This document shows, one piece after another, positions 4,481-54,948 of a stretch of DNA of 64,000 nt. Position 1 is the first letter of the stretch, and the number at the start of each line of letters is the position of its first letter. This DNA comes from an uncultured Gammaproteobacteria bacterium. Lineage in GTDB: Bacteria; Patescibacteriota; Patescibacteriia; SG8-24. Location: positions 189,265 through 253,264 of the forward strand of contig CAZBFO010000001.1 of the NCBI GenBank assembly GCA_964491475.1, read 5' to 3'. Made by a program: the position numbers and the translations under genes. The notes under the pieces were generated by a model. That model searched no databases and was not told the DNA's origin. It saw only the letters and a program-made list of their open reading frames with translations.

Positions 4481-5977
4481 ATGGAAAACCACGAAGAAAA
4501 AGAACCGAATCCGCTGGAGGAACGCTCCGCACGACTCGGCAAATTGCAGGCCGCAGTCGCCATGGGCATCCAGCCGTACCCCTCACGCTGCGAGCGCACC
4601 CACACCATCCAGGAAGTGCAGCACGGTTTTGATACTCTCGCAGGGGAGTCCACCGAAGTGACGGTGACCGGCCGCCTCAAAGCCGTCCGCGGCCACGGGG
4701 GAGCCTGCTTTGCCGACCTCGAGGACGGCACCCAGAAGATCCAGTTGCACCTCAAGAGCGACGTCCTCGGCGCCACGTCCTTCGAGACCTTCGAGAAGCT
4801 GGTGGACCGCGGCGACTTCATCCAGGTGAGCGGCACCTGCTTCGTGACCAAGCGCGGCGAGCGCAGCATCGAGGCCAAGCGCTGGACCTTGCTCACCAAG
4901 TCCCTGGCCCCGCTGCCCGACAAGTGGCACGGCCTGACCGACACCGAAGCCCGCTACCGCCGCCGCGAGCTCGATTTGATTTCCAACCCCGAAGTGCGTT
5001 TGCTGTTCAAGAAGCGCTCGCTGTTGGTGAGCGAACTGCGCCACTTTATGGAAGAGGAAGGCTTCATGGAAGTGGAGACTCCCGTGCTGCAGGGCATCGC
5101 CGGCGGCGCCACCGCCCGCCCGTTCATCACCCACCACAACGCCCTGGGCATCGATATGTACCTGCGCATCGCCACCGAGCTGCACCTCAAGCGCCTGGTG
5201 GTCGGCGGCTTTGAGCGCGTCTACGAGATCGGCCGCATCTTCCGCAACGAGGGCATCGACCATCTCCACAACCCCGAGTTCACCACCATCGAGTTCTACC
5301 AGGCCTACGCCGACTACAACGACCTCATGTCCATGACCGAGCGCATGCTGGCGCGCCTGGTCGAGCGCGTCTGCGGCACGCTGATCGTGGAGCACGACGG
5401 CGCCAAGATCGACTTTGCAGGCACCTACCCGCGCCTGACCTTCCGCGACGCCATCAAGCAGTACGCCGACATCGACATCGAGAACTTCCCCACGCGCCAC
5501 GAACTGGCCGCCGCCGCCGAAGCCAAGGGAGTCAAGGTGGAACCCAAGGACGACCGCGGGGCGATTTTGGACAACCTCTACAAGAGGACAGTCCGCGGCA
5601 GCATCGTCGACCCCACCTTCATCATCGACCACCCCACGGAGATTTTGCCGCTGGCCAAGCGCCGAGCGGACAATCCGAACTACGTGGAGAGCTTTCAGTT
5701 GGTTTTGGGGCGTGGTGTGGAGTTGATAAAAGCCTTTTCCGAGCTTAATGATCCGCTGGATCAGCGGGCGCGCTTTGAGGAGCAGGAGAAGTTACGGGCT
5801 GGGGGAGATGATGAGGCTCAGCCAATGGATGAGGAGTTCATCGCGGCTCTTGAGGCCGGCATGCCGCCGACGGCGGGGTTTGGGATGGGGATTGATCGGT
5901 TGGCGGCGCTTTTGACGGGATCGCATTCTTTGAAAGAAGTGATCTTGTTTCCGACTTTACGGCCGGAGGAGAAATAA
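4481..5977 (+). CDS. lysS: Lysyl-tRNA synthetase (class II)
   Basis: N-terminal OB fold followed by class II motifs ([26 protein letters not shown]; GMGIDRL). Confidence 0.9.
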
Positions 5978-5985
5978 ACATTGCT

Positions 5986-7104
5986 ATGAATTACTACGTC
6001 AACCTATTCTCACCGGAAACCGCGGAAATTTTTTCGCGTTCCGGTAAGAACATAAGCGGCTTCCGTCTGACAAAAAAAACTTACGTTGAGAACAGAAAAA
6101 TCGGTCCGGGGGACCGATTCATTTGTTATGTAACACGCATTCAACGCTTTATTGGCGTTTTAGAAGTTGTCAGCGACCCGTTCGTTGATAGCTCTCCAAT
6201 TTTTGACAAAGAAAATGACCCATTTGTCCTCCGCTTTAAGGTAAAGCCGATGGTATGGCTTCCGCTCGAAAAAGCACTGCCAATTCATGACAAAGCCATT
6301 TGGAACAACCTGTCTTTTACCAAAGGACTTGGGGATGATAGCAATAATTGGACTTACATGGTTTTTTCAAGTCCAAATCATTGGCCGACTGGAGATTGTG
6401 TTTTTCTTGAAAAGAAACTGCTTGGCCAAGCAGAGGACCAAGTTGATTTTCCGTTTAGCGAAGATGACCAGAAGAAACTTAAACCCCAAAAAATTAAGCT
6501 TCCTGGGAAGAAAGCTGTAGCCGTAACGATTCCGGAAGATGAGGAGGTCCCAGATACAGCAGAACAAACTACACCAAAAGACAGTGAACGCGAGTCACTT
6601 ATTGTCCAATCTAAGTTAGCCGAGGTTGGCGAAAAGCTCGGCTTTAAAATTTGGCTACCACGAAACGACAGGGCAGCCATCATCGGAATGTGGAAACCGC
6701 GGCCAGATTCTCTACTTGAAGAGCTGCCGTTTTCTTTTGACGACGCAACCACTCGAACCATAAAAAATATCGATGTACTATGGGTTAAAGGTCGTACAAT
6801 TGCTAGGGCTTTTGAGGTGGAGGGCACCACATCAATATATTCTGGTATTTTGAGGATGGCCGACCTCCTATCACTCGTACCGAACATTGAAATCAAGATC
6901 CACATCGTTGCGCCAGACGGGAGGCGCGAGGAAGTGTTTAAACAAATATCTCGCCCAGTTTTTGCGATAATGGAAAAAGCACCTCTGGCAGAGCTCTGTA
7001 CCTTTATCTCCTATAGTTCGGTATACGAACTGGCCTCTGAGAAAAGATTAGATTTAATGAAAGAATCCGTAGTCGATGAATACGAGGAAGCCTCCGAAGA
7101 GTAG
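5986..7104 (+). CDS. Hypothetical protein with an N-terminal PUA/EVE-like domain and a C-terminal putative nuclease-like domain; candidate modification-dependent (Type IV) restriction enzyme
   Basis: GC drops abruptly at the lysS stop. The N-terminus (MNYYVNLFSPETAEIF...GPGDRFICYVT...FIGVLEVVSDPF) resembles EVE/PUA-like folds. The C-terminus (IDVLWVKG...AFEVEGTT) shows a possible D...ExE/K nuclease-like strand pair. A Type II R-M lies adjacent. Confidence 0.4.
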   Translation: MNYYVNLFSPETAEIFSRSGKNISGFRLTKKTYVENRKIGPGDRFICYVTRIQRFIGVLEVVSDPFVDSSPIFDKENDPFVLRFKVKPMVWLPLEKALPIHDKAIWNNLSFTKGLGDDSNNWTYMVFSSPNHWPTGDCVFLEKKLLGQAEDQVDFPFSEDDQKKLKPQKIKLPGKKAVAVTIPEDEEVPDTAEQTTPKDSERESLIVQSKLAEVGEKLGFKIWLPRNDRAAIIGMWKPRPDSLLEELPFSFDDATTRTIKNIDVLWVKGRTIARAFEVEGTTSIYSGILRMADLLSLVPNIEIKIHIVAPDGRREEVFKQISRPVFAIMEKAPLAELCTFISYSSVYELASEKRLDLMKESVVDEYEEASEE

Positions 7105-7573
7105 TTATATAACTCTTGTGCGCGACAAACAAAAAGATCACACGGTACTCGTCTTCGGCACATTCGACCTGCTTCACCCAGGCCATCTTGCGTTTCTACG
7201 TGCGGCAGCAAAGTACGGCTCAGTGACGGCCATCATAACGCCCGATGCGAAAGTCAAAATAGAGAAAGGGAAAGCACCACACTTTTCTGAACAAGAGAGG
7301 ATGCTTATGGCCGCGGCCATTAAGTATGTCGACCATGTCGTTCTGGGAGACAATGGTACAAAATGGAATGTAGTACGCAATCTGGCGCCTGACGTTATTT
7401 GCGTTGGCCATGACCAGAACGCCAATCACCCAAAGTTCCTCGCGCAGTTGGCGCTGCTAAAAAAGCTTCCGAAAATTGTTCGGCTGCCCAGCCTTAAATC
7501 TTCGCGCTACTCATCCTCAAAAGTTAAGCTTGAAATACACAAAGCCAAACAAAACGAAGCAGCCGCTGATTAG
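7076..7573 (+). CDS. Cytidylyltransferase-like nucleotidyltransferase (RibL FAD synthase / TagD glycerol-3-phosphate cytidylyltransferase family)
   Basis: VLVFGTFDLLHPGHLAFL is the (H/T)xGH nucleotidyltransferase motif. ...VVLGDNG... and PDVICVGHDQ align with archaeal RibL. The gene is low GC and overlaps the upstream ORF by 29 nt, so the true start may be an internal or alternative codon. Confidence 0.55.
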   Translation: MNTRKPPKSSYITLVRDKQKDHTVLVFGTFDLLHPGHLAFLRAAAKYGSVTAIITPDAKVKIEKGKAPHFSEQERMLMAAAIKYVDHVVLGDNGTKWNVVRNLAPDVICVGHDQNANHPKFLAQLALLKKLPKIVRLPSLKSSRYSSSKVKLEIHKAKQNEAAAD

Positions 7574-7659
7574 TGCTCAGCTCCGAATCCATCGCAATGT
7601 GCTGAAACAGCCCATAACTTAATCAAAAACCGTCGCTTTTATGATGGTTTTGTTGCCGT

Positions 7660-7694
7660 TTGACATTGACGCGACAGCTAATTTTTGCTAATAC
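7660..7694 (+). promoter_or_regulatory. Putative sigma70-type promoter for the PLD endonuclease gene (TTGACA/TTGACG - 17 nt - TAATAC)
   Basis: Sequence tttgacattgacgcgacagctaatttttgctaatact lies about 70 nt upstream of the Met at 7766. Confidence 0.4.
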
Positions 7695-7765
7695 TTTGTA
7701 AGGCGCGCCCGTTGCATGCCCGCCGTGACGGACATCGTAAATCACAACGACAACACCTTCTCACA

Positions 7766-8959
7766 ATGCCTACACAAAAATTCATTTTCCAGGGCATTAC
7801 TTCGGAAACACACAAATCTGGTGTTGCATGGCTTTTGGCAACTGCAGATATCCAAAAAATCTTAATGAGCGTGGCCTTCATCAGCGAAGAAGGTGTGGCA
7901 CAGATTGAAAATGATTTGCGAAGCCACGCGACAAGTACCGAGTTTTTTGCAGGGATCCGTAATGAGATAACTTCTCGTCAAGCACTCGCCCGTCTCATTG
8001 GTTTAGGCGCGACTTTGTTTACGGTTGATACCGGTTCAAAGGGCACGCTTTTCCATCCAAAGTTATACTTTGCCAAAGGGCAAAATTTTGCGCGTCTCAT
8101 AGTGGGTAGCGCAAACCTGACTGCTGGTGGCCTCAACGATAATATTGAAGCCAGTATCGCCCTCGAGCTCGATCTTGCTCAAGCCAATGATTCTGCGCTC
8201 AGCGACGATGTCGAGCGGCTGTTGGGTGACATGGTATCCAATCATCCCAGTAACGTAAAAAGAATTTCTGCCGCCACCGAGCTTGATGTGCTACTGAACA
8301 ATGGCTTATTAATTGACGAAAGCCTCGCCGCGCCCCCTCGCGCGGCGACTAAAGGATCTAGCCCGTCGAGCGATATTGTTCCCCGGATTCAGCTGAGCAC
8401 CACCCGGCTGAACCGCATCGTCGCACGCGCACGCACCACTCCTCGACAGGTTCCCCAAGCCGCCAGGGCGGGCCGCTCAACCCAAGCCTCGCCACAAGCA
8501 TCTCCAGCTCCTTTGCTGACCGGGATTGAATTGGTATGGCAAAGCAAACCCCTGGAGGAAAGTGACCTAAACATCCCGAGCGGCAACAACACCCACCCCA
8601 AGGGCTCCATGAGCCTCGATCAGGGTACCCTAGACCCCTCGGTTGATTTCCGTCATTACTTCCGAAATACCGTTTTTCCGCAATTAACTTGGACGGTGAG
8701 TACACGCACCCCTGACGGAGAAGAGGCCAGCGCAAAGTGTGAGCTAATTGTAAAAGGGATTTCCTACGGAGTACATGAATTGACTATCAGTCACCACACA
8801 TCAACGACATCGACCACCTACAGGCAGCGAGGCCCGACGACCCGTCTTCGATGGGGCGCCATGAAAAGTCTTGTAGCCACTCCCGTTTTGCTTGGCCGAA
8901 CACTTTCACTTTACAAGAATACCGCAAGTTCAGACCGCTTTGTTATTGATATTGACTGA
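7766..8959 (+). CDS. PLD-family (HKD nuclease) restriction endonuclease, BfiI/NgoAVII-like
   Basis: HPKLYFAKGQNFARLIVGSANLTAGG carries the HxK...GSxN PLD motif. It is followed by a C-terminal domain of DNA-binding size. Its 3' end overlaps a convergent N6A MTase. The start is taken at the internal Met (MPTQKF) because the longer ORF begins inside the promoter. Confidence 0.6.
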   Translation: MPTQKFIFQGITSETHKSGVAWLLATADIQKILMSVAFISEEGVAQIENDLRSHATSTEFFAGIRNEITSRQALARLIGLGATLFTVDTGSKGTLFHPKLYFAKGQNFARLIVGSANLTAGGLNDNIEASIALELDLAQANDSALSDDVERLLGDMVSNHPSNVKRISAATELDVLLNNGLLIDESLAAPPRAATKGSSPSSDIVPRIQLSTTRLNRIVARARTTPRQVPQAARAGRSTQASPQASPAPLLTGIELVWQSKPLEESDLNIPSGNNTHPKGSMSLDQGTLDPSVDFRHYFRNTVFPQLTWTVSTRTPDGEEASAKCELIVKGISYGVHELTISHHTSTTSTTYRQRGPTTRLRWGAMKSLVATPVLLGRTLSLYKNTASSDRFVIDID

Positions 8960-10596
8960 GCGTTATTTTGCTCGGACGCGGTTCTTTGCCGTCGATTTCG
9001 GAGATTTATCCAATTTTCAAAAATCAACTCTCTTTCGGTTGCCGTCAAGCCCAAATCACCCAAGAGCTTGCGATCCTGCTTGCCCAGCACCGCCTCAGTG
9101 GACAAAGTTCGGACGTCATAATCGAGCTCCTTGATGTTAATCTTCACTCCCTTGGGCATGGGAATCAGCAGTCGCTCGATCTCGGACGGAACAAGTTCCA
9201 ATACACCTCCGCCGTAATGCCTACCCTCCAGCTCCGCACTTAACGAGGTGAGCGAATTTACGAAATTACCGACCAAGACATTCCCCGAAACGCTGTTTGG
9301 CTTAATTCTATATGCAGTGTCAGTGGTAAAAGCGTTTAGCTTGTTCACAATAAGCCTCGGAGTATTGCTCGAACGCTTAAGCATGCCAATCTCGGTTGCA
9401 TGCACAGAAGGAACGGAATACCAAGGCTTTCGAACGCTACACTTATAGCGAGTGTTCAGCTTTTGCCGTTCGCCAAACGCAATGTATTTTCTGGCGGCGG
9501 CATCCTTTGCTGCTGACTTATCAGGGAACCAGATGAAGTTTGTCGGGTAGCCCTTTTGAGCGTTCTCTGCGTGCTGCCGAGCGTCGTAAATAACCCCGGG
9601 GCAGTGCCCACTCCTCCCGAACATCGGGTGTGACCATTTCTCCAACCCATACTCTTGGACGGTATCATCATCCACCAGAAAAAAATCGTTCGCGCCGGTC
9701 ACGATGCCAACGTCGACTGCTGCAATATCAATGAATTGTTTTACGTATTCTTGGTTTGCCAGATCTGACAGAATCGACCGCATCTTTGACGCAAGGAGTG
9801 CGTAGGTCCACTTTCCCTTATTGACATCCGTGTTCATCAACTTTGGCGCGTTAAACACCTCAGAGGGATTCAACTTTAGAAACTCTTTTCCTTGCACAGG
9901 ATAAATGCCGACGCCTTCATTAAAGCCCTTGGGGCCGCGGCGTTTTTCAGCCATCAAGAGGACCGCACCCTGGAGCGTATTACCAAACCAGATTTCCTGA
10001 GGGTCAACGATTACGACTCTCCGACACTCTCGTCCAAGAAATGCTCGCAGCGAGCCAGCGTGGGCTACGTGGATTATTTCCGAAGGCACCACCATCGCCA
10101 AACGACCTCCAGGCCGAAGCATCGCAAGGGATGCTGCAATAAATGGCACCCACGCGTTCGTATGCTTAGTGAAGTCGAGGTTTAGGTGCGAAAAAATTTG
10201 CGCGGCACGTGCTTGGAATTTCTCTGGTAGATACTGATAGCGGATGAATGGCGGATTACCCAAAATGGCATCGAAGGTGGTGTTACCGCGCATTTCTTCG
10301 GTTGCCCAGCCGAGATAGTCACCCTGAACGATTCTTGCCTTCGGAAGAAGACCGCGTACTCGCCTCGCAGACTTCGCGGCCTCGTCTTCGTCCAGCTCAA
10401 GGCCGGTGACGGTGCTATTTGCAAATCCACCAACCTTCGCGAGTGCTTCAAAAAAAATTCCGTCCCCGCAACTAGGCTCGAGGATGTTTGCCGGCTTAAT
10501 TTCCTTCACCCAGCGGCTCAAAAAAACTGCCAAATCTAAGGAAGTGTAGTAGCCGCCCCTAAGCTTTTGTGCACTCTCATTAGCCCTAAAGTTCAT
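8911..10596 (-). CDS. N6-adenine-specific DNA methyltransferase (gamma class, Eco57I/TaqI-like) with a C-terminal target-recognition region
   Basis: ILEPSCGDGIFF is the SAM-binding FxGxG motif and AILGNPPFIRY is catalytic motif IV (NPPF). The gene is low GC and sits opposite the PLD nuclease. Confidence 0.8.
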   Translation of the reverse strand: MNFRANESAQKLRGGYYTSLDLAVFLSRWVKEIKPANILEPSCGDGIFFEALAKVGGFANSTVTGLELDEDEAAKSARRVRGLLPKARIVQGDYLGWATEEMRGNTTFDAILGNPPFIRYQYLPEKFQARAAQIFSHLNLDFTKHTNAWVPFIAASLAMLRPGGRLAMVVPSEIIHVAHAGSLRAFLGRECRRVVIVDPQEIWFGNTLQGAVLLMAEKRRGPKGFNEGVGIYPVQGKEFLKLNPSEVFNAPKLMNTDVNKGKWTYALLASKMRSILSDLANQEYVKQFIDIAAVDVGIVTGANDFFLVDDDTVQEYGLEKWSHPMFGRSGHCPGVIYDARQHAENAQKGYPTNFIWFPDKSAAKDAAARKYIAFGERQKLNTRYKCSVRKPWYSVPSVHATEIGMLKRSSNTPRLIVNKLNAFTTDTAYRIKPNSVSGNVLVGNFVNSLTSLSAELEGRHYGGGVLELVPSEIERLLIPMPKGVKINIKELDYDVRTLSTEAVLGKQDRKLLGDLGLTATERELIFENWINLRNRRQRTASEQNNAQSISITKRSELAVFL

Positions 10597-10697
10597 AGTA
10601 CCTACTTACGCACAATACACAGTGATGGTACTTGAACTGGGGCATATATCCCAGATAAGTTATACCCCCCCACACTCTAGTGCCGCTATTCCGCCCC

Positions 10698-12455
10698 TTA
10701 AGCTTTGGTTGGCTCACCGATATGAGGTTCATTCGGCGTCACGAAAGTCCCTTGAGCCTTGAGCAGCCCCGCATAAGCCCCACCCCGAGCCACGAGCTCC
10801 TCATGCCGCCCGCTCTCCGCAATCCGCCCGTCCTTCAAAACAAGAATCACATCCGCATCCTGCACCGTCCGTAACCGGTGGGCGATGATGAACGTCGTGC
10901 GGTCCTTCATCAAAACGTCGAGCGCGTTCCGCACGGCTTCCTCGGTCTTGCTGTCCAAGTGCGCCGTCGGTTCATCCAAAACGATGATCTTCGGCTTTCG
11001 CAGGAACGCCCGTGCCAACGCCACGCGCTGGCGCTCGCCTCCGGACAACTTCAGGCCGCGTTCGCCGACCATCGTGTTCAGGCCTTCGGGCAGCGCGGCC
11101 ACAAAGGTTTCAAGGCTGGCCAGGCGGACGGCCTCGCGGATCTCCTCTTCGCTGGCCTCGGGGCGGCCGTAGCGGATGTTGAAGCCGAGGGTTTCGTGGA
11201 AGAGGGTCAGGTCTTGGGGGACGTAGGACATCTGGCGGCGCAGGGACACCAAGTTGAGGTCGGCGGCGTTGCGGCCGTCGACCGTGATCTCGCCGGACTG
11301 GGGCAGGTAGTAGCGGCCGAGCAGGTCGACCATGGTGGTCTTGCCCTCGCCCGACTCGCCGACGATGGCCACGCGCTGGCCGGCCTTCACGGCGAACGAC
11401 ACGTCTTCCAGCGTCGGCTTGTCCTCGCTGTAGCGGAAGCGGACGTGACGGTATTCGACGTCGCCGCGCAGCTCGATGGCCTCGCCGCTCATGAAGTCCT
11501 CGGCAGGCTCGGATTCGATATCCTGAATGTCTTTGAGCGCGGCGGACATCCGCATGACCGAACGAAGCTGCCATTGGCAGTAGCGGATGTACCCGAAGAT
11601 GGCGAAGGTGTAGGCGGTGATGGTCGTGACGCGGCCAAAGGTGAACCGTCCGGCGCCGAAGTCCAGCACGGCCAGCAGCAATGCCGCGAACGATCCAAAG
11701 GAGATGATCAGGTTTTGGGTGTTGAGCACGCGCATGTCGATGCCGAAGTCCTCGGCGATGACCGCGCGGAACTCATCGCTGTACTGCTTGAGCGTGGTCG
11801 CGACGAACTGTTCGTTGGTGGTCGACTTCACCACCAGGGCGTTGCGCACGGAATCCCAGCCGAACGACGAAATCTTGCGATCGGCCTTGTTCCACTCCTT
11901 GCGGCTCTCCATCACCTTGGAAAGCGTCGAGCCGGTATACGACATGAAGGCGCAGATGGCCGCCAGCAGAGCCGCCGAAATGCGCCAGTCCAAATACGCC
12001 ACGTATCCCAAAATGCCCACGATGGCCAACAGTGCCGGCCACAAGTCGAACACGATGCCGCTGATGACGTTGTCCACGTCCCAGCGCAGACGGTTCACCG
12101 CCTCGGAAGTCTCGGCGCTTTTCCTGCCGTAATGAAAGGCCAGCGGCTTGTTGAGGATGACCAGCATCAACCGGCGCACCAAGCTTTCGGAGGCGTCCGT
12201 GGATACTTGCTGCCCGCGCTGCAACGTAAAGGAACGCAAGCGCTCCGAAATCACACGCAGTACGAACCAGCCGGCCAAGAAGCCGCCAGCCACCACGAAG
12301 CCCGAGCCGCCCCGAACCAAATCGAACCCACGCCCCATGGCGATGGGAGCGACCGTATCCAAACCGGCTGTCACCACGGAAAGCGCGGTGAAGGCGACGA
12401 CGGTGCGGGAATAAGGCTTGAGTTCGCGCTGGAGGAAGCGGGCGACAGGGTGCAT
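10698..12455 (-). CDS. ABC transporter, fused permease/ATP-binding half-transporter (MsbA-like exporter)
   Basis: Six-TM N-terminal domain. Walker A GESGEGKTT, ABC signature LSGGERQRVALARA and Walker B IIVLDEPTAHLD are all present. Confidence 0.85.
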   Translation of the reverse strand: MHPVARFLQRELKPYSRTVVAFTALSVVTAGLDTVAPIAMGRGFDLVRGGSGFVVAGGFLAGWFVLRVISERLRSFTLQRGQQVSTDASESLVRRLMLVILNKPLAFHYGRKSAETSEAVNRLRWDVDNVISGIVFDLWPALLAIVGILGYVAYLDWRISAALLAAICAFMSYTGSTLSKVMESRKEWNKADRKISSFGWDSVRNALVVKSTTNEQFVATTLKQYSDEFRAVIAEDFGIDMRVLNTQNLIISFGSFAALLLAVLDFGAGRFTFGRVTTITAYTFAIFGYIRYCQWQLRSVMRMSAALKDIQDIESEPAEDFMSGEAIELRGDVEYRHVRFRYSEDKPTLEDVSFAVKAGQRVAIVGESGEGKTTMVDLLGRYYLPQSGEITVDGRNAADLNLVSLRRQMSYVPQDLTLFHETLGFNIRYGRPEASEEEIREAVRLASLETFVAALPEGLNTMVGERGLKLSGGERQRVALARAFLRKPKIIVLDEPTAHLDSKTEEAVRNALDVLMKDRTTFIIAHRLRTVQDADVILVLKDGRIAESGRHEELVARGGAYAGLLKAQGTFVTPNEPHIGEPTKA

Positions 12456-12575: not shown

Positions 12576-13187
12576 CTACGCCGTTACACGATCGAGAAAG
12601 CGGCATGCATTCGCCTGCAATGAACGCCCAACGATGCTCCGCGCGGCTTGTATGGCATCACCGCAGTTGTCGAAGACGAACGCGCGGTCCTTTTGACGGA
12701 ACAGGCGCTTGAACTCCGAATGATTTGCCCGTGCGTCTTGCTCGATTCCGTCCGGCTCCAGGGAACGAATCCTGCCGGTCATTCGGACGTCATGGTGCCG
12801 GCGACGTAGCACGGCATCAGTCGAAGCATTGAGCATAAAGTACGCCCTGCCGTACGGCCGAAACGCCTCGTCCCACATGCACTCGCGGCGCGTAATTCCA
12901 TTCTGCCTGATGCAGACAACCAAGTGCATCTCGCAGACGATCAACGGCGCCTGAGCGTGCAGGGCAAACGCCCTGAGCAGCGCCGATCGCAGCACCTCCC
13001 GCTTCGCAATAACGGATATCCGCTCAATCTCCTCACGGGAAGCGCCGTCGAAGGCGTGCCGCAAGACCTCCGAGCTCGATATCCGCACCGATCCTCTGAC
13101 CATGCTGACCGAGTGACCTGCTATGGTCGATTTTCCGACGCCGTTGATGCCGAACAGAAAGCAGACGTTTTTCATGATGGCCTCCAC
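12576..13187 (-). CDS. P-loop NTPase, small nucleotide/nucleoside kinase-like protein
   Basis: FLFGINGVGKSTIAG is a Walker A motif. Its size of about 200 aa fits NMP-kinase or shikimate-kinase-like folds. It lies downstream in the same orientation as the Ham1-like and ThyA-like genes. Confidence 0.5.
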   Translation of the reverse strand: MEAIMKNVCFLFGINGVGKSTIAGHSVSMVRGSVRISSSEVLRHAFDGASREEIERISVIAKREVLRSALLRAFALHAQAPLIVCEMHLVVCIRQNGITRRECMWDEAFRPYGRAYFMLNASTDAVLRRRHHDVRMTGRIRSLEPDGIEQDARANHSEFKRLFRQKDRAFVFDNCGDAIQAARSIVGRSLQANACRFLDRVTA

Positions 13188-13238
13188 GCCCTGAATGGGC
13201 GCCAGCCGCGTCGTCCGTTTGACGGCGCGGAAAGGCGA

Positions 13239-14201
13239 CTATTCAGGAGAAGCAAAGCGGCTTAGGAATCTGGCCAGCGCAGGCACCTCGGAAGTCCTGC
13301 CGCGCTCTTCGGGCGGCATTTCCGCATAGGTCAGTCCCGCGGGATTGGCAGCGGTCACCGGAATCAAGATCTTATCCATCGGGTACGAAGGGAACGTGCC
13401 TCGGGGTTCTTCGGAAAACCTGACCGGCACCTCGCTCACTTCCACGGACATCTGGAAGCCGTCAAAGAACGCGGCGGCGTTTCGTCTGCTCCCGTTTCGG
13501 TTTTCGACGCCCGCCAGGAGCCGCAACAGGCCCTCCGGCTTCAATTTGGTTGCGGCCTGTTTGGAGTTCGGACCGGGAAAGCCCTCATAGGCGTCCATGA
13601 AAATGCCGCCGTCGGTGCAGAGCACCGGTCTTCCCACGATTGCGTATGCACGTCGCGCCTTGTCGTCGGCAATTTTCTCGATGCTGTCATGTTTCAGTTC
13701 TGGAAGATCAAAGTCGCAAGCGTGGAGGTGCGGATGTTCGACCGCCGAACGCATTTCGCGCAACTTCATCGGATTGCTGGTGACAAAATAAACGGAGTCG
13801 GGGAACGGCCGATGGAATGCGACGACCGTGACACCAGTTTCTTCGTCGTCAGACTGCGCGGTCGGCACCCAGCCGAGTCCGCGCATCGAGCTGCGAATCC
13901 ACCTCGGATCAAAACCGCCGCAGGTACGAACGCGCTCAAAGTCGAAGACCGCATACGTGCCGACCCGAGACAGCCTCGTGAGCTCGGCCATATGCAACTG
14001 CGCTTCGACCTTGTCCGCCGTCAGACGGAGCACGTTCCTCGACGTGAGCACGTCGAACGCGCAAGGCGTCACTGGCATGCCTAACATGATCACCTCCAAA
14101 CACCTTGGCGACTCCAATGCGTCAAGCACTCCCGTGAGCACCGTTTCAAAACGCACGATGTTTCGCCTGCTTACTTCCTCGTTCTGCATGTCGACTCTCA
14201 T
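13239..14201 (-). CDS. Fusion protein: unknown N-terminal domain joined to a Ham1/ITPase-like non-canonical NTP pyrophosphatase domain
   Basis: The C-terminal half carries VYFVTSNPMKLREM (Ham1 S/TxNxxKxxE motif), DFDLPE and DGGIFMDAYEGFPGP. The start is chosen at the Met (MRVDMQ) that overlaps the upstream ThyA-like stop in an ATGA arrangement. Confidence 0.55.
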   Translation of the reverse strand: MRVDMQNEEVSRRNIVRFETVLTGVLDALESPRCLEVIMLGMPVTPCAFDVLTSRNVLRLTADKVEAQLHMAELTRLSRVGTYAVFDFERVRTCGGFDPRWIRSSMRGLGWVPTAQSDDEETGVTVVAFHRPFPDSVYFVTSNPMKLREMRSAVEHPHLHACDFDLPELKHDSIEKIADDKARRAYAIVGRPVLCTDGGIFMDAYEGFPGPNSKQAATKLKPEGLLRLLAGVENRNGSRRNAAAFFDGFQMSVEVSEVPVRFSEEPRGTFPSYPMDKILIPVTAANPAGLTYAEMPPEERGRTSEVPALARFLSRFASPE

Positions 14202-14971
14202 ACCATTCCCGCCATTAACGGCATTAACCTTGGCATCTTTTGCGCGGCGCACTCATTTAGGTACGAACTGACCGTCTCGAGAGCGGCATCATAGGTGTTC
14301 TGATAGATGTGGCCGTCCGTAATCATTCCGTCGATGAAGCCCATGCGTACCGGCGCACTGAGCGTTGACGACAACCGACGCCCCACCTCCTGCGCCAGCA
14401 GTGAGAAAATCACCAAATCGCTGACGTTCTTCTGGAAGATGTCCTGCGAACGCATGTTGTAAATGGTGTTGAGCATGTAGCCGTTGTCGTTCTTGCGGAG
14501 ACGGAACTGCAACGAAACGATACAGGGGAGATAGTCGTTATAGGGCGAATCCAGCACCTTGCCGTAATCCTCGTACGTCGGGAACACCATGACCGCCTTT
14601 TTGGATTCGGGAATTTCCGTCAGCCGTTTCACCACGAAATCGATCATTCGCCCCTCATGCAGCCTCGCATGATAGCTTTTCGCGCCCACGCGAAAGTTCG
14701 GCGTGATGTCGAAGTCTTCCATGACGGGGGACTCGAACACCAGACGGCGCATCTTCTCGATGTTGGCGGCGTTGCCGTAGCGCTCGACCAAGAAATCCTT
14801 TTCGCCGTGCGACCGCACCTTGAGCCGAAGCATCGGCAATGCGAACCTGCCCCGGTTCTCGTCGGGATCGTAAGCCCCGTTCTTAATGACGCACTCGACT
14901 GCCGCCAACCAAGCCTCACCGATAGTGTCTCCGGCAACCGAGTAGCCGAAGCATTCGTGGAAATTAATCAT
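14198..14971 (-). CDS. Thymidylate-synthase-fold pyrimidine C5-methylase/hydroxymethylase homolog
   Basis: [10 protein letters not shown] aligns with the ThyA PCH catalytic Cys loop. [20 protein letters not shown] aligns with [28 protein letters not shown] aligns with GDTHLY. Aligned by eye, Asp occupies the position of the specificity Asn of E. coli ThyA. Confidence 0.6.
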   Translation of the reverse strand: [257 protein letters not shown]

Positions 14972-15152
14972 AGGTGTGATGTGGATAAGTATGGGGTAGT
15001 CGTAACAGACCTCCTAAATACTGTCAAGCCTTTGACAACTTATTATTTACAAAGTGACAGATGGTCATACATAATTAATGCTTAAAGTCCGAAAAAGCTT
15101 GCGTTAATGTCAGCTCTCGACTACCCTCGCGCCCGCCGGTAATCGGACAAGC

Positions 15153-15569
15153 ATGGGTGATTTTCTAAAACGTTTCTTGGAATGGTCACAGCTTAAAATG
15201 GCACTGCATCAATTGCACAAAACGGTGCGATGCAAGGAGCGCGAAATATGGTGGGTGCACCTAGGGGTAAACGTAGGCGACGAAGAGGACGGCAAGAATG
15301 CGTCGTTCGAAAGACCAGCTATCATCATTAGGAGATTTTATGGCGGCAAGATACTTTGGGTTATTCCTCTCACAACATCAAAGAGAGATGGCGATTATTA
15401 CTTCAGCACCCGCTACACTAACTCAAACGGAAAAGTAATTGATCAATTCGCCATGATCCCGCACTTACGTGCAATCAGCCAAAAAAGGCTGGTACGCAAA
15501 TTGCGGATGCTGTCGAAAATCGAGTTCTCATCGTTAGCAGAACGAATAAAACAGTTCTTGGACACATAA
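15153..15569 (+). CDS. MazF/PemK-like endoribonuclease toxin homolog (orphan; no adjacent antitoxin ORF)
   Basis: REIWWVHLGVNVG...ERPAIIIRRF...ILWVIPLTTSKRDGDYYF parallels MazF GDLIWVDFDP...RPAVVLSPF...CLCVPCTTQSKGYPFEV. Confidence 0.5.
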   Translation: MGDFLKRFLEWSQLKMALHQLHKTVRCKEREIWWVHLGVNVGDEEDGKNASFERPAIIIRRFYGGKILWVIPLTTSKRDGDYYFSTRYTNSNGKVIDQFAMIPHLRAISQKRLVRKLRMLSKIEFSSLAERIKQFLDT

Positions 15570-15743
15570 AAAACGACACCCCGTCTGCCGAAGCAGGACG
15601 GGGCGTCTCGGAGCCCGAAGGCACTTGTACGGCTAGGCTACCACTGCCCGCACGGGCGGTCAAGAAACCCATCACATCGGAATTTTTTCGCCTCATTCAG
15701 CATTATTGTCAATACAAACACCTCGTGGCACAATGACCCCCGT

Positions 15744-17072
15744 ATGTTGGACCCCAAACTCATCCGAGAAAACCCCGAGGTGGTCAAAGCCGCCGCCAAG
15801 AACAAGCGCGTGAACGTCGACGTGGACGCCATCGTCTCGTTGGATTCGCAGAAGCGCAAGCTCCAACAGGAGTCCGAAGCCATCAAGGCCGAACAGAACA
15901 AGGCATCGGCTGAAATCGCCAAACTCTCCGCCGAAGAACGTCCCAGCAAGCTCGAGGCAGTCAAAAAGCTCAAAGAATCTTTCAAGGAGCTGGAAGAAAA
16001 GATGACCGCCATCGACGCCGAGCTGCAGCCGCTCCTCTTGAAGCTGCCCAACATCCCCAGCGACGACACGCCAATCGGCCCGGACGAGACCGGCAACGTC
16101 GTGCTGCGCCAAGTGGGGGAGATGCCCAAGTTCGATTTCCCGATCCGCGACCATGTGGAACTCGGCAAGATCAACGATCTCATCGACAACGACCTCGGTG
16201 CCGCCGTGGCCGGCGCACGCTTCACCTACCTGAAGGGCGACTTGGTGCTGCTGCAGATGGCCATGGTCAACTACGCCTTCGCGCTGCTCACCGACCGCGG
16301 TGCCCTTGAACGCATCATCGCCGAAGCCGACCTGCACGACGTCGTGGCCACCCCCTTCGTCCCCGTGGTGCCGCCGCTGATGATCAAGCCCGACGTGTAC
16401 CAGCGCATGGCCCGCCTTGAGCCGCGCGAGGAGCGCTACCACATCCCCAGCGACGACCTCTACCTCATCGGCAGCGCCGAGCATACCCTCGGCCCCATCC
16501 ACATCGACGAGACCATCGACGAGACCCGCCTGCCGCTCCGCTACGTCGCTGCCACCGCCGCCTTCCGCCGCGAGGCCGGCTCGTACGGCAAGGACACCCG
16601 CGGCATCATCCGCCTGCACCAGTTCGACAAGGTCGAGATGGAATCGTTCTCCGCCCCCGAACAGTCGCGCGGCGAGCACGAGTTCTTCGTGGCCGTCCAA
16701 GAGCACATCTGCAAGGCTTTCGGGATTCCATACCAGGTGGTGCAATCCTGCACCGGCGACCTCGGCGATCCGAACGCCCGCAAGATCGACATCGAATGCT
16801 GGATGCCCGGCCAGGGAACCTACCGCGAAACCCACTCCGCCGACTACATGACCGACTACCAGACCCGCCGCCTCGCCACGCGCGTGAAGCGCCGCGAGGG
16901 CGGGAACGAGTTGGCGCACACCAACGACGCGACCTGCATCGCCATCGGGCGCATGCTGGTGGCGGTGATGGAGAATCATCAGCGCGAGAACGGGACGATT
17001 GGCGTGCCGGAAGTGCTGGTGCCTTATATGTTGGGGCGGACGGTGGTTGGGGGAACAGAAAAAAAATCCTAA
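15744..17072 (+). CDS. serS: Seryl-tRNA synthetase
   Basis: N-terminal coiled-coil arm followed by class II core motifs (FRREAGSYGKDTRGIIRLHQFDKVE). Confidence 0.9.
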   Translation: MLDPKLIRENPEVVKAAAKNKRVNVDVDAIVSLDSQKRKLQQESEAIKAEQNKASAEIAKLSAEERPSKLEAVKKLKESFKELEEKMTAIDAELQPLLLKLPNIPSDDTPIGPDETGNVVLRQVGEMPKFDFPIRDHVELGKINDLIDNDLGAAVAGARFTYLKGDLVLLQMAMVNYAFALLTDRGALERIIAEADLHDVVATPFVPVVPPLMIKPDVYQRMARLEPREERYHIPSDDLYLIGSAEHTLGPIHIDETIDETRLPLRYVAATAAFRREAGSYGKDTRGIIRLHQFDKVEMESFSAPEQSRGEHEFFVAVQEHICKAFGIPYQVVQSCTGDLGDPNARKIDIECWMPGQGTYRETHSADYMTDYQTRRLATRVKRREGGNELAHTNDATCIAIGRMLVAVMENHQRENGTIGVPEVLVPYMLGRTVVGGTEKKS

Positions 17073-17165: not shown

Positions 17166-18908
17166 CTACTTCTCGGCGGCCAAAGCGTCGAAAAGGCCGT
17201 CGAAGAACTTGGAGACGGATTTCCTGCCGCGCGCCTCCTTTGCGACCAAAAACTGAAAATGCGTTCGCTTGAGGTTGGTGTTGGCAATGTGGCGGCTGTG
17301 AAAGGTCTCGAGCATCTTCTTGCCGTCATAGAACTCGCGCCGGCGGCCATCCTTCTTTATCGAGGCCACTGCAACCTCGGCATTCTTTTGGAGTTTCGCG
17401 ACCTCCTCTGCCGAGAATTTCATCTGAAGCTCTGCAATGAAATCTCCGACCTGCTTCGCGAGCTCGGTGAGCGGCCGCTTCGGGCGGAAACCGTGAAAAC
17501 CGAGAGCCTTGTGGACCCGTCGCTCTATCTCATCCGCCTCCATCTCGTCGGAAATTTTGTCGAGCGCCGCGACAACGTCCTCCTTCGATTTCAGGTCTGT
17601 CTGCTCGACTACGACCTCAATTGCCCTCCAGATGGCGTCAGGATCAATGAGGAAGTTCTCGACCACGGACACAGGTAGGACAAACACGTCCTCGGGCACC
17701 TCTGGCGGAAAACCGACATCCTGATCGACCAAGGCGAAGACCTTGAGGCCACTGCTAAATCCGTCGAGCGCGCTCGAAAGACGCGATCTCAAGCTCATGC
17801 ATTCACTTTTTCCTCCACCAGGGATAACGGTGGCTCCGTCAAACCTTTGGCTAAGTGCACGGAAGAGTTTCCGCGCGCCGACGGCATTCTTCGCCTGCTC
17901 ATCACCCACGCCCTCTGCGATGATGACTGGCTGCATCGCGGTCAGATTGGAAGTACTGCCGAACAGCTCGCGCAAGACGGACAGACGCTCGTCATCGGCG
18001 GCAATCGGAATCAGCTGGTTTTCTCCGTCGGCCACCAGCTCGACTGGCCGCATCAGAAATAGCTCCTCAAAGGATGCATTCTCTACAATGGACGGGGAGT
18101 GGGTCGCAACAATCACCTGTGTATCCTCTTCGGCGGCAAGCACGCGGAGGTAGTCGAGCACTTTCATCTGCAAGTTCGGGTGCAGGTGTAACTCCGGTTC
18201 GTCTATGAGAACACACAAGTCGGTCTTGGCCTTGGGGGCGGAGCGACCATGAAGACCGTCGAGCGCCTCACGAACACGATGTTCGATCAGGGGATAGAAC
18301 ATCTGGATAATCGACTTCTCGCCAGAACTCAGGTCATCGAGGTCCACTTCAGTCGGCTTGCCGTGGACACGCCACACGCACCGAATGTTATCGCGATTCG
18401 ATGTGTCGATCTTCACGAACTCAAGGTGCGGCAATAGACTCTTCGTTAGAGCGCGAAACGGCTCCCAGACGTCGTCGATGGTGCCCTTGAGAATCTCTTG
18501 ATCTCGGTCGAATCGCGCCGTGATAGCTTCCTTCCTGCCAACGTCGATCTGGCAGAGCCCGTGCTTCAGGTAGTTGTATGCGTCATCAACGTTCCACGCG
18601 TCGCGGCTTCCACCCGCAAGAAGATTGATACCCTCGTAGCCCGATACCGATGTCTGTGTGAGGATTTCCTCCAGCTTGATGTCCTGACTTGCTAGGTGGC
18701 GTTGTTGCACTGTCTGCTTGCGCATGGCGCGAGCGGGGCCAACGTAGAGTACGCCGCTGGTGCGGCCGCCGGAGTTTCGGAGTTCGTTCAGGAGTGTGGA
18801 TTTGCCGCAGCCGTTCGGACCGGCGATGATCATCAGACTCGGGACAGCGACGCACTCGGCGAGCCGAACGGCCCGCTTATCGGTGATTTTGAATTCGGGA
18901 ATGCGCAT
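17166..18908 (-). CDS. OLD-family nuclease (ABC-type ATPase with a C-terminal Toprim domain), standalone class 1
   Basis: Walker A GPNGCGKST, signature-like LSSGEKS, Walker B LCVLIDEPELHLHP and H-loop ATHSP are present. The C-terminus carries VIIAEGVGDE...LVDQD Toprim acidic motifs. The start is taken at the internal Met (MRIPEF). No helicase or other partner gene is adjacent. Confidence 0.7.
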   Translation of the reverse strand: MRIPEFKITDKRAVRLAECVAVPSLMIIAGPNGCGKSTLLNELRNSGGRTSGVLYVGPARAMRKQTVQQRHLASQDIKLEEILTQTSVSGYEGINLLAGGSRDAWNVDDAYNYLKHGLCQIDVGRKEAITARFDRDQEILKGTIDDVWEPFRALTKSLLPHLEFVKIDTSNRDNIRCVWRVHGKPTEVDLDDLSSGEKSIIQMFYPLIEHRVREALDGLHGRSAPKAKTDLCVLIDEPELHLHPNLQMKVLDYLRVLAAEEDTQVIVATHSPSIVENASFEELFLMRPVELVADGENQLIPIAADDERLSVLRELFGSTSNLTAMQPVIIAEGVGDEQAKNAVGARKLFRALSQRFDGATVIPGGGKSECMSLRSRLSSALDGFSSGLKVFALVDQDVGFPPEVPEDVFVLPVSVVENFLIDPDAIWRAIEVVVEQTDLKSKEDVVAALDKISDEMEADEIERRVHKALGFHGFRPKRPLTELAKQVGDFIAELQMKFSAEEVAKLQKNAEVAVASIKKDGRRREFYDGKKMLETFHSRHIANTNLKRTHFQFLVAKEARGRKSVSKFFDGLFDALAAEK

Positions 18909-53852: not shown

Positions 53853-54006
53853 GTGGATTCCCGGGTTGCGACGGCGTAGTTAGTATGGACGGAAACTTCC
53901 GAAAGGAAGTTTCCCACAATGCCGGCTATAATAAAGAGTGGCGCCTTCTAAGGCGTAAGTAGTAACGAGCAATGCTCATTTCCTACCCGCGCAAGTACGT
54001 TGCGCT

Positions 54007-54255
54007 TCAGAAGCGGTAGACGATTCTACCCTTAGTCAAATCGTACGGAGTCATCTCCAGTTTGACCTCGTCGCCGGGAAGGAGACGAATGCGGTTCATT
54101 CGCATCTTTCCGGAGAGATGTCCCAGAATGGTCTGGCCACCCTCGAGACGGATCTTGAACGTTGCTGCAGGAAGACATTCTTCGACGACACCGTTCATTT
54201 CGATGAACCCTTTGGACACCGATTGCGCGTTGTCGTTAGAGGTGTTTCCTGCCAT
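54007..54255 (-). CDS. infA: Translation initiation factor IF-1
   Basis: [65 protein letters not shown]. The start is taken at the internal Met. Confidence 0.85.
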
Positions 54256-54523: not shown

Positions 54524-54576
54524 CGTCTTAGGTCAGTAACGAAGCATACAACCAAGTCACACATTCGGAGGAATAC

Positions 54577-54918: not shown

Positions 54919-54948
54919 AACGGACAACTCTCGCCAGGGAGCAAAAAA

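Follow-up and report, generated by a model that had tools for sequence, protein, structure and literature searches.

Between lysS and the gene of an ABC exporter, the window analysed here (the whole stretch of 64,000 nucleotides, from an uncultured bacterium) contains a tract of anomalous composition, and the question is what this tract contains and how it reached its position. In the original prediction it was described as a single inserted island of 4.7 kb carrying an R-M pair, with an unclear mode of acquisition. The tract is instead probably a composite, in which two unrelated defence modules occupy two variable slots that flank a resident core gene, and its import is likely to have occurred by homologous recombination.

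Composition and gene content of the tract

Between positions 5978 and 10697 the GC content is 0.44-0.52, compared to about 0.62 in the surroundings, and the GC3 drops from about 0.83 to 0.43-0.55. In 500-nt windows both flanks lie at 0.60-0.71, whereas the segments 6001-8000 and 8001-10750 show values of 0.42-0.48 and 0.49-0.57, respectively; the mean of the 1-kb windows is 0.617 (sd 0.037) outside the tract versus 0.492 inside. The tetranucleotide deviation reaches 0.56 (6001-8000) and 0.41 (8001-10000), compared to 0.19-0.36 in the rest of the window. The predicted sharp drop in GC content and codon usage is therefore borne out by the windowed GC, the GC3 of the individual genes (listed below) and the tetranucleotide deviation. 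The predicted contrast in antisense open reading frames also holds, as the long ones in the flanks measure 349-600 aa and the longest inside the tract 175 aa. The features of the region are the following:

5600-5977 (start approximate; gene 4481-5977), plus strand: 3' end of lysS, protein conserved, codons deviant; GC3 of the gene 0.83
5986-7104, plus strand: ORF1, 372 aa, N-terminal EVE (PUA-like) domain and C-terminal NmeDI_C/FokI-like PD-(D/E)XK nuclease; GC3 0.43
7076-7573, plus strand: ORF2, cytidylyl/adenylyltransferase-like, 'FAD synthetase' in sources (PF01467 at 2.9e-16); GC3 0.51
7574-7765: spacer of 192 nt upstream of the PLD gene, start of slot 2
7766-8959, plus strand: PLD-B3 restriction endonuclease candidate, 397 aa; GC3 of the R-M pair 0.51-0.55
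8911-8959: overlap of the PLD and methyltransferase (MTase) 3' ends, exactly 49 nt
8911-10596, minus strand: gamma-class N6-adenine DNA MTase, 561 aa, M.Eco57I type, predicted cognate modification enzyme
10597-10697: spacer of 101 nt from the MTase start to the ABC exporter stop, right edge of the low-GC tract
10698-12455, minus strand: ABC exporter with ABC_membrane and ABC_tran domains, resident right flank; GC3 0.84

The tract contains four genes, two of which (5986-7104 and 7076-7573) had gone unmentioned. The identity of lysS is given by a match to NF001756 at 3.5e-191. The ABC exporter has an ortholog with 61% identity in the relative L174, in the same place and orientation. The right-hand spacer has a GC content of 0.50, the GC3 returning to 0.84 in the ABC gene, and in L174 a corresponding spacer of 79 nt separates the ORF2 ortholog from the ABC gene. 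The low GC of 5978-10697 agrees with the limits first proposed, but in evolutionary terms the left edge lies before the lysS stop codon, within the gene.

No integrase or transposase domain is present in the four tract genes, no tRNA was found from 1 to 20 kb of the window and no Rfam family within the window, and the repeats found are only short, imperfect and of a size that chance would give. The domain, tRNA and repeat searches agree on this point with the original prediction, which had reported no integrase, transposase, tRNA or flanking direct repeats. An integrative island or mobile element was also considered as a candidate and rejected, given the lack of integrase or transposase, tRNA and non-chance repeats and the core gene inside the tract.

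The two predicted defence modules

In the PLD protein a flexible linker joins a PLD nuclease domain to a B3-like DNA-binding domain; this is the architecture of BfiI, the best match of the protein both by sequence and by fold. The predicted HxK…GSxN motif is present as FHPK...GSANLT, and the catalytic set HxK...N...E is placed in a PLD fold. The two structure models reach a mean pLDDT of 69.6 and 65.2, which is a moderate confidence, with domain cores at 80-90. The protein scores 20.2 bits against PLDc_2, for which the gathering threshold is 27, and this family is matched by 14 of 14 aligned homologs (best 2.2e-8). Against RE_NgoFVII (PF09565) it scores 16.6 bits, below the cut-off of 23.8 for membership; this model is matched by nine of the 14 homologs, the best (7.8e-4) being only slightly stronger than the sub-threshold match of the window protein. 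No Pfam model covers the C-terminal domain. The nearest homolog shows 49% identity, the database homologs are named 'phospholipase D family protein' or 'HKD family nuclease', and the PLD-B3 family is a large one, amounting to 243 clusters at 50% identity. The spacer upstream of the gene holds one promoter-like match (7666-7695), the number of matches not being above that of shuffles.

The assignment of the convergent gene to the gamma-class N6-adenine MTases stands. The AdoMet motif I precedes NPPF/Y, and the motifs EPSCGDG and NPPF align with those of the M.TaqI catalytic domain (5.4e-8). The Pfam families M_Eco57I_C (PF22837, 3.4e-82, 276 bits, cut-off 27), Eco57I (PF07669, 4.1e-12, 47 bits, cut-off 25.3) and N6_Mtase (PF02384, 6.5e-9, 36 bits, cut-off 20.4) are all above threshold, and the PADLOC model MTase_II (PDLC03267) matches over its full length at 1.1e-182. 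The nearest homolog shows 64% identity, and homologs at 54-64% follow a PLD gene. The MTase adjoins the PLD gene in 65 of the 66 loci with enough flank and is convergent with it in 64, so that nuclease and MTase are adjacent and co-inherited, as in a Type II system. Clustering of the open reading frames in 80 PLD loci gives these two genes as the only conserved ones, with no conserved ATPase, helicase or C-protein. The module is also found on small Yoonia and Roseobacter plasmids.

The convergent ends overlap as predicted, by exactly 49 nt. Of the 76 homologous loci with convergent genes, 65 have an overlap of 4 nt, eight have one of 20 nt and three have small gaps instead. In the homologs the PLD gene ends in GAT TAG, in which the MTase stop is read as TTA (TAA on the minus strand). 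In the window the corresponding end is GAC TGA, which gives the minus-strand codon CAG and extends the MTase by 15 codons. Judged from these sequences, the 49-nt overlap is a derived lengthening, caused by the loss of the overlapping stops that usually share 4 nt in this family.

Slot 2 (7574-10697) would hold a two-gene Type II R-M module. By analogy with BfiI, the PLD enzyme would act as a dimer, joined via the PLD domains and with one HKD active site. The B3-like domains would bind the recognition site and the enzyme would cleave the DNA close to it, with no need of ATP and probably none of metal. The convergent MTase would N6-methylate an adenine in the same site and in this way protect the host DNA.

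ORF1 is a second defence gene, absent from the earlier account. It combines an EVE/PUA-like reader domain with a fused nuclease domain whose acidic catalytic residues are intact. The C-terminal region of about 165 residues is homologous to R.NmeDI (PADLOC PDLC03534 at 9.5e-16; Pfam NmeDI_C), and residues 198-363 align to positions 172-338 of the 351 positions of a PADLOC 'Type II REase' model. Full membership in the R.NmeDI family was rejected, as the match is limited to residues 198-363 and an EVE domain takes up the N-terminal half. The nearest homolog shows 70% identity. Homologs occur without a linked MTase in four unrelated contexts (Taylorbacteria, Draconibacterium, an archaeon-like contig and L179), and since ORF1 stands alone in other genomes it is predicted to be a stand-alone modification-dependent (Type IV) endonuclease. 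The EVE-PD(D/E)XK architecture had previously been predicted as Type IV (Bell et al. 2020; PMC7641849). In slot 1 (5978 to about 7117) the EVE pocket would read a modified base and the FokI-like PD-(D/E)XK domain would cut the modified DNA, no methylase being required. The presence of an m6A methylase and an EVE/YTH-like reader-nuclease in one locus sets limits on what the reader can recognise.

Three other assignments of these proteins have to be weighed. The PLD protein might be the R-subunit of an ATP-dependent system of the NgoAVII/CglI kind, with its helicase/ATPase encoded elsewhere. Such systems depend on a DEAD-family helicase/ATPase gene next door and use a C5 MTase, the three genes lying side by side (PMC4267653), but across the 80 loci the PLD gene has no conserved ATPase or helicase neighbour and the window tract contains none, and the ATP-independent BfiI is the better match in structure and sequence; we consider this reading very improbable. 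There is even less to expect from a role outside restriction, as a Nuc-like nuclease, a lipid enzyme or a DISARM (DrmC)-type fragment beside an orphan MTase. The weak PADLOC and NCBIfam matches to DrmC and ZacB, together with the name 'phospholipase D family protein' given to homologs by annotation pipelines, speak for it. However, those matches cover the HKD motif region only, no DISARM or Zorya partners are conserved, a B3-like domain of the sequence-specific type is fused to the nuclease, and the pairing with the MTase is near-obligate, with overlapping stops. The slimmest chance is given to ORF1 as the cognate, NmeDI-like Type II endonuclease of the MTase, or to an MTase that protects against both nucleases. 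The MTase is about 1.8 kb away, and a PADLOC 'Type II REase' model exactly as long as R.NmeDI (351; PMC2095814) matches ORF1 in its C-terminal half. Nevertheless, the match is restricted to this nuclease half, the N-terminal half being an EVE reader, the homologs in the four contexts have no MTase neighbour and no PLD-MTase locus contains an ORF1 homolog. Moreover, R.NmeDI is paired with a C5 methylase.

Resident core gene, lysS and the origin of the tract

The probable true start of ORF2 is the GTG at 7118, which gives a protein of 151 aa and removes the overlap with ORF1. Only 38 homologs were found, named as Patescibacteria/Uhrbacteria adenylyl- or cytidylyltransferase or as FAD synthetase. 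ORF2 is a resident core gene and not cargo, because its orthologs are placed directly downstream of lysS in three relatives, L174 (72% identity), L176 (59%) and L007 (39%); lysS ranks them in the same way (85, 69 and 65%). The gene order is lysS, a 268-aa low-GC gene, ORF2, the reversed ABC gene and serS in L174; lysS, a 405-aa NTase-like low-GC gene, ORF2 and serS in L176; and lysS, ORF2 and serS, with no cargo, in L007. The slots on either side of ORF2 thus hold other cargo or none in these relatives, contrary to the single inserted island first proposed. The DNA of the tract is alignable to the relatives across ORF2 only, and the homology to L174 and L176 stops at the ORF2 stop codon.

The GC3 of ORF2 (0.51) compares with 0.74, 0.62 and 0.63 in the relatives, 0.74 being that of the closest, and in all of them the ortholog lies below its neighbours. 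A homolog with 73% identity is located on a contig of 0.49 GC (GC3 0.54), so lower-GC relatives exist. In a neighbour-joining (NJ) tree ORF2 forms a clade with L174; the tree does not separate vertical descent from block import.

The 3' end of lysS (5600-5977) is a probable left recombination tract. At identical amino acids, the fraction of codons shared with L174 is 0.67 over the first 380 codons or so and 0.29 over the last 120, in which the amino-acid identity is 0.90 (Fisher p = 5e-12 for the synonymous excess). Comparison with L006, L176 and L008 gives the same drop, the window being the outlier in all pairwise comparisons. Among the relatives themselves it is mostly absent (one pair with p 0.02, one with 0.056), and control genes show it slightly or not at all, the fraction going from 0.66 to 0.50, from 0.51 to 0.52 and from 0.63 to 0.59. 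Within lysS the change point of GC3 follows codon 404 (coordinate 5693), with 0.88 before it and 0.62 beyond. In serS, PBP2 and the ABC gene GC3 is likewise lower at the 3' end, and GC3 alone is not specific for the tract. In the ABC gene the synonymous-site test detected no break that would mark a right-hand crossover.

The synonymous-site excess in lysS points to import via homologous recombination. Most likely, the donor was a relative of lower GC and the tract was swapped in through the conserved flanks, one of the crossovers falling within the 3' end of lysS. Such recombination makes the machinery of mobile elements unneeded, and import as one block would account for the island-like composition of the core gene ORF2. 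The lack of an integrase and a transposase was rightly noted in the original prediction, but the mode of acquisition need not stay unclear, as the break in lysS suggests a likely answer.

Two accounts compete with the composite imported by recombination. One of them, possible though doubtful, holds that ORF1 entered slot 1 and the R-M pair slot 2 in two separate insertions, that ORF2 is vertical and AT-shifted, and that the odd lysS 3' end goes back to an earlier exchange with no connection to these insertions. In its favour, the identities to the nearest homologs are unequal (given above for ORF1, PLD and MTase), the modules co-occur in none of the 80 PLD loci and none of the four EVE contexts, slot 1 has been filled independently in L174 and L176, and the ORF2 orthologs of all relatives have a GC3 below that of their neighbours. 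The difference in GC3 between ORF1 and the R-M pair (0.43 against 0.51-0.55) also speaks for separate origins, though it fits a single block as well. However, this account requires an extra explanation for the GC3 of ORF2 against that of the closest relative, and leaves unexplained a continuous low-GC tract that begins within lysS. The other account, a single foreign island of 4.7 kb entering between lysS and the ABC exporter by one site-specific or illegitimate insertion, agrees with this continuity and with the sharp composition edges. It is very unlikely, as the ORF2 ortholog follows lysS in three relatives without the cargo, integrase, tRNA and flanking repeat are lacking, and the anomaly reaches into the lysS coding sequence with the protein unchanged.

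In a more far-reaching reading, a single homologous-recombination event with a lower-GC relative may have brought in about 5.1 kb, beginning within lysS and reaching to the start of the MTase, with both defence modules and the core gene between them. Separately, the PLD restriction enzymes may include a third subfamily, independent of ATP and represented by the PLD-B3/m6A-MTase module. This reading is proposed tentatively, at somewhat under an even chance. If the import was a single event, defence genes move in an uncultured Patescibacteria-like lineage by allelic replacement between core genes, with no mobile-element machinery. If the subfamily is real, it could offer new metal-independent Type IIS specificities. 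The locus itself is an ordinary defence cluster, with nothing surprising to R-M or defence-island specialists; its anatomy is corrected from one island to four genes, with two slots for cargo and a core gene that is resident, and a testable answer is offered as to how the DNA entered.

Comparison with known systems

BfiI (Type IIS, metal-independent; PDB 2c1l, 3zi5) and the PLD protein share a size of about 360-400 aa and the lack of an ATPase partner. Their identity is only about 16%, the similarity is confined to the HKD region, and the window protein has a disordered linker of about 65 residues, much longer than that of BfiI. The partners of BfiI are cytosine methylases, whereas the PLD protein is paired with a single gamma-class m6A MTase of the M.Eco57I type. 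No characterised member of the PLD-B3 and m6A-methylase family was found in published experimental work. Since BfiI-type enzymes are rare, metal-free cutters, a characterised member might serve as a reagent. R.NgoAVII and R.CglI (ATP-dependent; PDB 4rct, 4rd5) differ in their adjacent DEAD-family helicase/ATPase gene, which has no conserved counterpart here.

The MTase shares with the M.Eco57I/M.TaqI type the Eco57I catalytic region, the M_Eco57I_C target-recognition domain and a motif I placed before NPPF. M.Eco57I, however, is partnered by a large Type IIG PD-(D/E)XK enzyme and the window MTase by a PLD enzyme, and the latter MTase bears a non-conserved C-terminal tail of 15 residues, from the stop-codon loss.

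ORF1 shares the N-terminal EVE and C-terminal nuclease domains of the EVE-HNH enzymes VcaM4I and TspA15I and of the EVE-PD(D/E)XK proteins, which are Type IV modification-dependent endonucleases, predicted or shown, and it is likewise a solitary gene with no linked methylase (PMC7641849, PMC6765204, PMC7897488). With R.NmeDI (Type II, cutting on both sides of RCCGGY) the homology covers the C-terminal 165 residues or so, but in ORF1 an EVE domain replaces the N-terminal half and no methylase is linked.

Finally, the locus resembles the defence hotspots between core genes, in which the same intergenic positions hold varying low-GC cargo or none, mobility genes are absent and a flanking core gene, here lysS, carries a recombination signature. 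It differs from them in its host, an uncultured and probably Patescibacteria-like lineage, and in its slots, which contain one or two genes set tightly against the core genes, with a spacer of 8 nt after lysS.

Composition and gene order of the tract

The composition break between lysS (NF001756, 3.5e-191) and the ABC exporter gene is confirmed, and no other in the window is as strong. Measured in 500-nt windows, the GC content is 0.60-0.71 in both flanks and falls to 0.42-0.48 at 6001-8000 and to 0.49-0.57 at 8001-10750; in 1-kb windows the mean is 0.492 within the region versus 0.617 (sd 0.037) outside. The tetranucleotide deviation reaches 0.56 and 0.41 in the two 2-kb blocks of the region, versus 0.19-0.36 in all other blocks of the window, and GC3 is 0.83 in lysS, 0.84 in the ABC exporter gene and 0.43, 0.51, 0.51 and 0.55 in the four enclosed genes. 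Antisense ORFs of 349-600 aa occur throughout the flanks, and the longest within the region is 175 aa. The original prediction, which described a sharp drop in GC and codon usage and spurious antisense ORFs confined to the flanks, is therefore borne out. The borders also carry none of the marks it had reported missing: no tRNA was found at 1-20 kb of the window, the whole window gave no Rfam match, the repeat search at the tract returned short imperfect repeats only, leaving the island ends unmarked, and integrase or transposase domains are absent from all four proteins. Promoter- and terminator-like matches show no clear excess over shuffled sequence. More low-GC patches, with short ORFs only, lie at 25000-26000 (0.55) and 54000-55000 (0.51).

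The predicted pair of a phospholipase D (PLD)-type nuclease and an N6-adenine methyltransferase (MTase) is present, but the gene inventory was incomplete, with two of four genes described.

Genes of the low-GC tract (5978-10697)
5986-7104, ORF1, EVE-NmeDI_C nuclease, 372 aa
7076-7573, ORF2, small cytidylyl/adenylyltransferase-like protein (PF01467, 2.9e-16)
7766-8959 (+), PLD nuclease, 397 aa
8911-10596 (-), MTase, 561 aa

ORF2 has just 38 detectable homologs, named FAD synthetase or adenylyl/cytidylyltransferase, in Patescibacteria-group bacteria. The nearest lysS relatives in the species collection, which does not contain the window genome, are MAGs at 65-75% identity. A closer relative, contig L174, was reached through the ORF2 homologs (lysS 85%, serS 83%, greA 80%, ORF2 72% and ABC exporter 61% identical).

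Gene order in the window and in three relatives (variable genes in square brackets; < marks reverse orientation)
Window: PBP2-greA-lysS-[ORF1]-ORF2-[PLD, <MTase]-<ABC-[four more genes]-serS
L174: mreB-mreC-PBP2-greA-lysS-[268-aa gene, GC 0.48]-ORF2-<ABC-serS-alr-ddl
L176: ...lysS-[405-aa nucleotidyltransferase-like gene, GC 0.50]-ORF2-serS-alr-ddl
L007: lysS-ORF2-serS-alr

Since the relatives share this gene order, ORF2 identity (72/59/39% for L174/L176/L007) ranks as lysS identity does (85/69/65%), DNA homology to the relatives covers exactly the ORF2 and lysS reading frames and ends at their ends, and a neighbour-joining tree groups the window ORF2 with L174 (clade support 49%), the ABC exporter gene and ORF2 are residents. 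The tract is thus a composite, with cargo in two slots. The first slot, between lysS and ORF2, holds differing low-GC genes among the relatives or is empty; the second, between ORF2 and the ABC exporter gene, is a 79-nt spacer in L174. In the first slot of L174 (7188-7994), the 268-aa protein has no family match; in that of L176 (6647-7864), the 405-aa protein matches Aminoglyc_resit (1.2e-6) and, weakly, AbiEii. Both genes are packed tightly against lysS.

Route of acquisition and neighbourhood

ORF2 has a GC3 of 0.51 in the window and of 0.74, 0.62 and 0.63 in relatives. As this core gene has an island-like composition, lysS was checked for an extension of the foreign tract. The same-codon test was used, which gives the fraction of positions with an identical amino acid at which window and relative use the same codon. 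Against L174, this fraction is 0.67 up to about codon 380 of lysS and 0.29 in the final 120 codons (Fisher p = 5e-12), down to 0.18-0.20 in sliding windows, at an amino-acid identity of 0.90 over the last 120 codons. The window also shows the drop against the relatives L006 (0.64 to 0.42), L176 (0.59 to 0.40) and L008 (0.59 to 0.44). Between relatives it is mostly absent (L174-L008, p = 0.02; L174-L006, 0.056), and the control genes compared with L174 go from 0.66 to 0.50 (PBP2), 0.51 to 0.52 (ABC exporter) and 0.63 to 0.59 (serS). The window-specific drop, together with these controls, makes the synonymous sites of the lysS 3' end look foreign over a conserved protein, a pattern that reads as the signature of a homologous-recombination crossover at ~5530-5690.

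The GC3 change point of lysS is significant, but was set aside as tract-specific evidence because similar drops occur at other 3' ends. GC3 falls significantly in the last 20-95 codons of lysS, ABC, serS and PBP2, that is, in all four core genes tested (serS 0.88 to 0.52, PBP2 0.91 to 0.68, for example), and this seems to be a general codon-usage feature of the genome.

The crossover within lysS and the composition of ORF2 are consistent with homologous recombination having brought in the entire tract as one block, a scenario that we propose tentatively. The closest ORF2 homolog (73% identical, GC3 0.54) lies on a 1.3-kb contig of 0.49 GC. This contig lacks lysS and so adds nothing on synteny, but it indicates that lower-GC relatives, potential donors, exist. 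The same-codon test located no right-hand crossover in the ABC exporter gene, and the ORF2 tree is compatible with vertical descent as well as with block import. Two separate arrivals of the cargo are considered somewhat less likely than block import. The single inserted island of the original prediction was not borne out, since ORF2 follows lysS in L174, L176 and L007 and the cargo occupies two slots; a classic single-site insertion is therefore unlikely. Block import, if correct, would have carried ORF2 together with the cargo.

The neighbourhood from lysS to serS is defence-rich, and conserved core genes that flank variable defence cargo are well known. A second low-GC patch (14750-15750, GC 0.45-0.49) contains a PemK/MazF-type toxin gene (15198-15569, +; PF02452, 4.1e-10) just upstream of serS, for which no antitoxin was identified. 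Immediately past serS, where GC is slightly low (0.55-0.58), a 580-aa AAA_15/AAA_21 protein (17166-18908, -) matches the PADLOC fused PARIS model AriAB at 2.6e-56, as well as PtuA, GajA and OLD-type ATPases, and seems to be a further defence gene beside the same core block. The interval between the ABC exporter gene and serS (12576-14971, -) encodes a 199-aa AAA_17 kinase-like, a 320-aa Ham1-like (with an N-terminal extension of ~136 residues) and a 257-aa thymidylate-synthase-like protein. All three are missing from the corresponding spacer of L174 (~190 nt) and possibly form a third variable slot or a nucleotide-metabolism cassette.

The PLD nuclease, its methyltransferase and ORF1

The PLD gene starts at ATG 7766 and not at TTG 7685, in agreement with the homolog N-termini and the database gene call. 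The protein scores below threshold against the Pfam models PLDc_2 (20.2 bits, cut-off 27) and RE_NgoFVII (16.6 bits, cut-off 23.8), and its match to BfiI is weak (7.7e-5). The BfiI alignment spans the catalytic region, and H97, K99, N117 and E128 correspond to H105, K107, N125 and E136, whose catalytic roles have been described (PMC4267654). These four residues are invariant across 14 aligned homologs (44-50% identity). The family is large: clustering at 90% gives at least 756 members, and at 50% identity with E <= 1e-30 there are 243 clusters. In literature searches, no paper characterising any member of this PLD-B3/m6A family was found.

By sequence comparison, the identity of the MTase is clear-cut: it matches M_Eco57I_C (3.4e-82), Eco57I and N6_Mtase, the PADLOC Type II MTase model over its full length (1.1e-182) and the M.TaqI catalytic domain (5.4e-8), in which EPSCGDG and NPPF align. 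Scanning metagenomes with the PLD alignment gave 80 loci, 66 of them with at least 1.7 kb downstream. An MTase homolog (54-64% identity) directly follows the PLD gene in 65 of these 66 and is convergent in 64. Clustering of all ORFs from the 80 loci left PLD (80) and MTase (77) as the only conserved genes, the next independent cluster occurring in 10; hence no helicase/ATPase partner or controller protein is conserved in these loci. The same pair lies between lgt and a HipA module in an NCBI MAG, and on small Yoonia and Roseobacter plasmids, annotated as 'phospholipase D family protein' and 'N-6 DNA methylase'. Two loci depart from the convergent rule: L149 lacks an MTase in the 4.9 kb downstream of PLD, and the MTase of L153 runs in the same direction as the PLD gene, 154 nt past it. 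In L003 (6394-8657; ENA ERZ27236914 k141_781975), a metagenome variant of the L002 locus, an intact PLD gene is followed by an MTase call of only 144 aa and ~1.8 kb of other sequence. Either the methylase has been disrupted and the neighbouring nuclease spared, or the assembly is at fault here.

The convergent coding ends of the window pair (8959 and 8911) overlap by 49 nt, as originally reported. In 76 convergent homologous loci, the overlap is 4 nt (65 loci) or 20 nt (8), and three pairs are slightly apart. The homologous PLD genes end in ...GAT TAG, whose embedded TTA serves the MTase as its stop (TAA) on the opposite strand. The window gene ends in ...GAC TGA, so that the opposite-strand codon is CAG (Gln) and not a stop, and the MTase reads 15 codons further into the PLD gene, with the non-conserved tail QSISITKRSELAVFL. 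The long overlap is thus a local accident, the loss of the overlapped stop codon, and not a designed feature.

A PADLOC Type II REase model of 351 positions matches the C-terminal half of ORF1 (9.5e-16), and ORF1 bears the precomputed Pfam family PF27126, NmeDI_C; R.NmeDI is 351 aa long (PMC2095814). Its modelled C-domain resembles FokI-type PD-(D/E)XK cleavage domains (N.BspD6I 8.6, R.BspD6I small subunit 8.3, FokI 7.0), and D263 and E277-x-E279 are invariant. The family has >4000 members, 60-70% identical, across bacteria and archaea. Four homolog contexts were examined (Taylorbacteria, a low-GC contig, Draconibacterium, with an adjoining integrase and group II introns, and an archaeon-like contig); none has a methylase or ORF2-like neighbour. 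A conserved small HTH gene upstream was discarded as a candidate: a 30-48-aa XRE-type remnant immediately precedes the nuclease gene in the Taylorbacteria loci L086/L087 (5852-5998), and none was found in Draconibacterium, the archaeon-like contig or the window. The L174 ortholog of ORF2 begins with MHKVLVFG, which makes GTG 7118 the probable ORF2 start and would remove the apparent 29-nt overlap of ORF1 with ORF2. A functional link between the two genes, suggested by that overlap, was rejected on account of this start and of the homolog contexts examined, none of which has an ORF2-like neighbour. A role as Type IV modification-dependent endonucleases was earlier predicted for EVE-PD(D/E)XK fusions (PMC7641849; see also PMC6765204, PMC7897488), and ORF1 is best read as a predicted member of the same class.

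Proposed mechanism and relation to known systems

The analysis shows the fold, residues and gene pairing of the PLD enzyme; beyond these, the enzyme would follow BfiI in dimerisation, binding and cleavage mode. By this analogy, the PLD domains would dimerise into one active site (PMC4267654, PMC3973309). The two B3-like domains of the dimer would bind the target, and cleavage would need no ATP and probably no metal. The M.Eco57I-type MTase would protect the host through m6A in the same site. M.Eco57I methylates its asymmetric site on both strands, and this would fit a partner of Type IIS-like character. In ORF1, the EVE pocket may bind a modified base and the FokI-like domain cut. Since an m6A methylase is encoded alongside it, ORF1 presumably does not recognise the base made by that methylase, and modified cytosines are the likelier target.

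Among known systems, the restriction-modification pair is likened to BfiI in its working mode, at an identity of ~16%, and differs from NgoAVII and CglI, which have an ATPase/helicase partner (PMC4267653), whereas the pair described here has no ATPase. The sub-threshold Pfam scores, a C-terminal domain without a Pfam model and the low BfiI identity set it apart from the BfiI/NgoFVII group at the sequence level. The best description of the pair is a further widespread, apparently uncharacterised PLD-B3 Type II subfamily with a different methylase class, and ORF1 falls within the EVE-PD(D/E)XK Type IV class predicted earlier.
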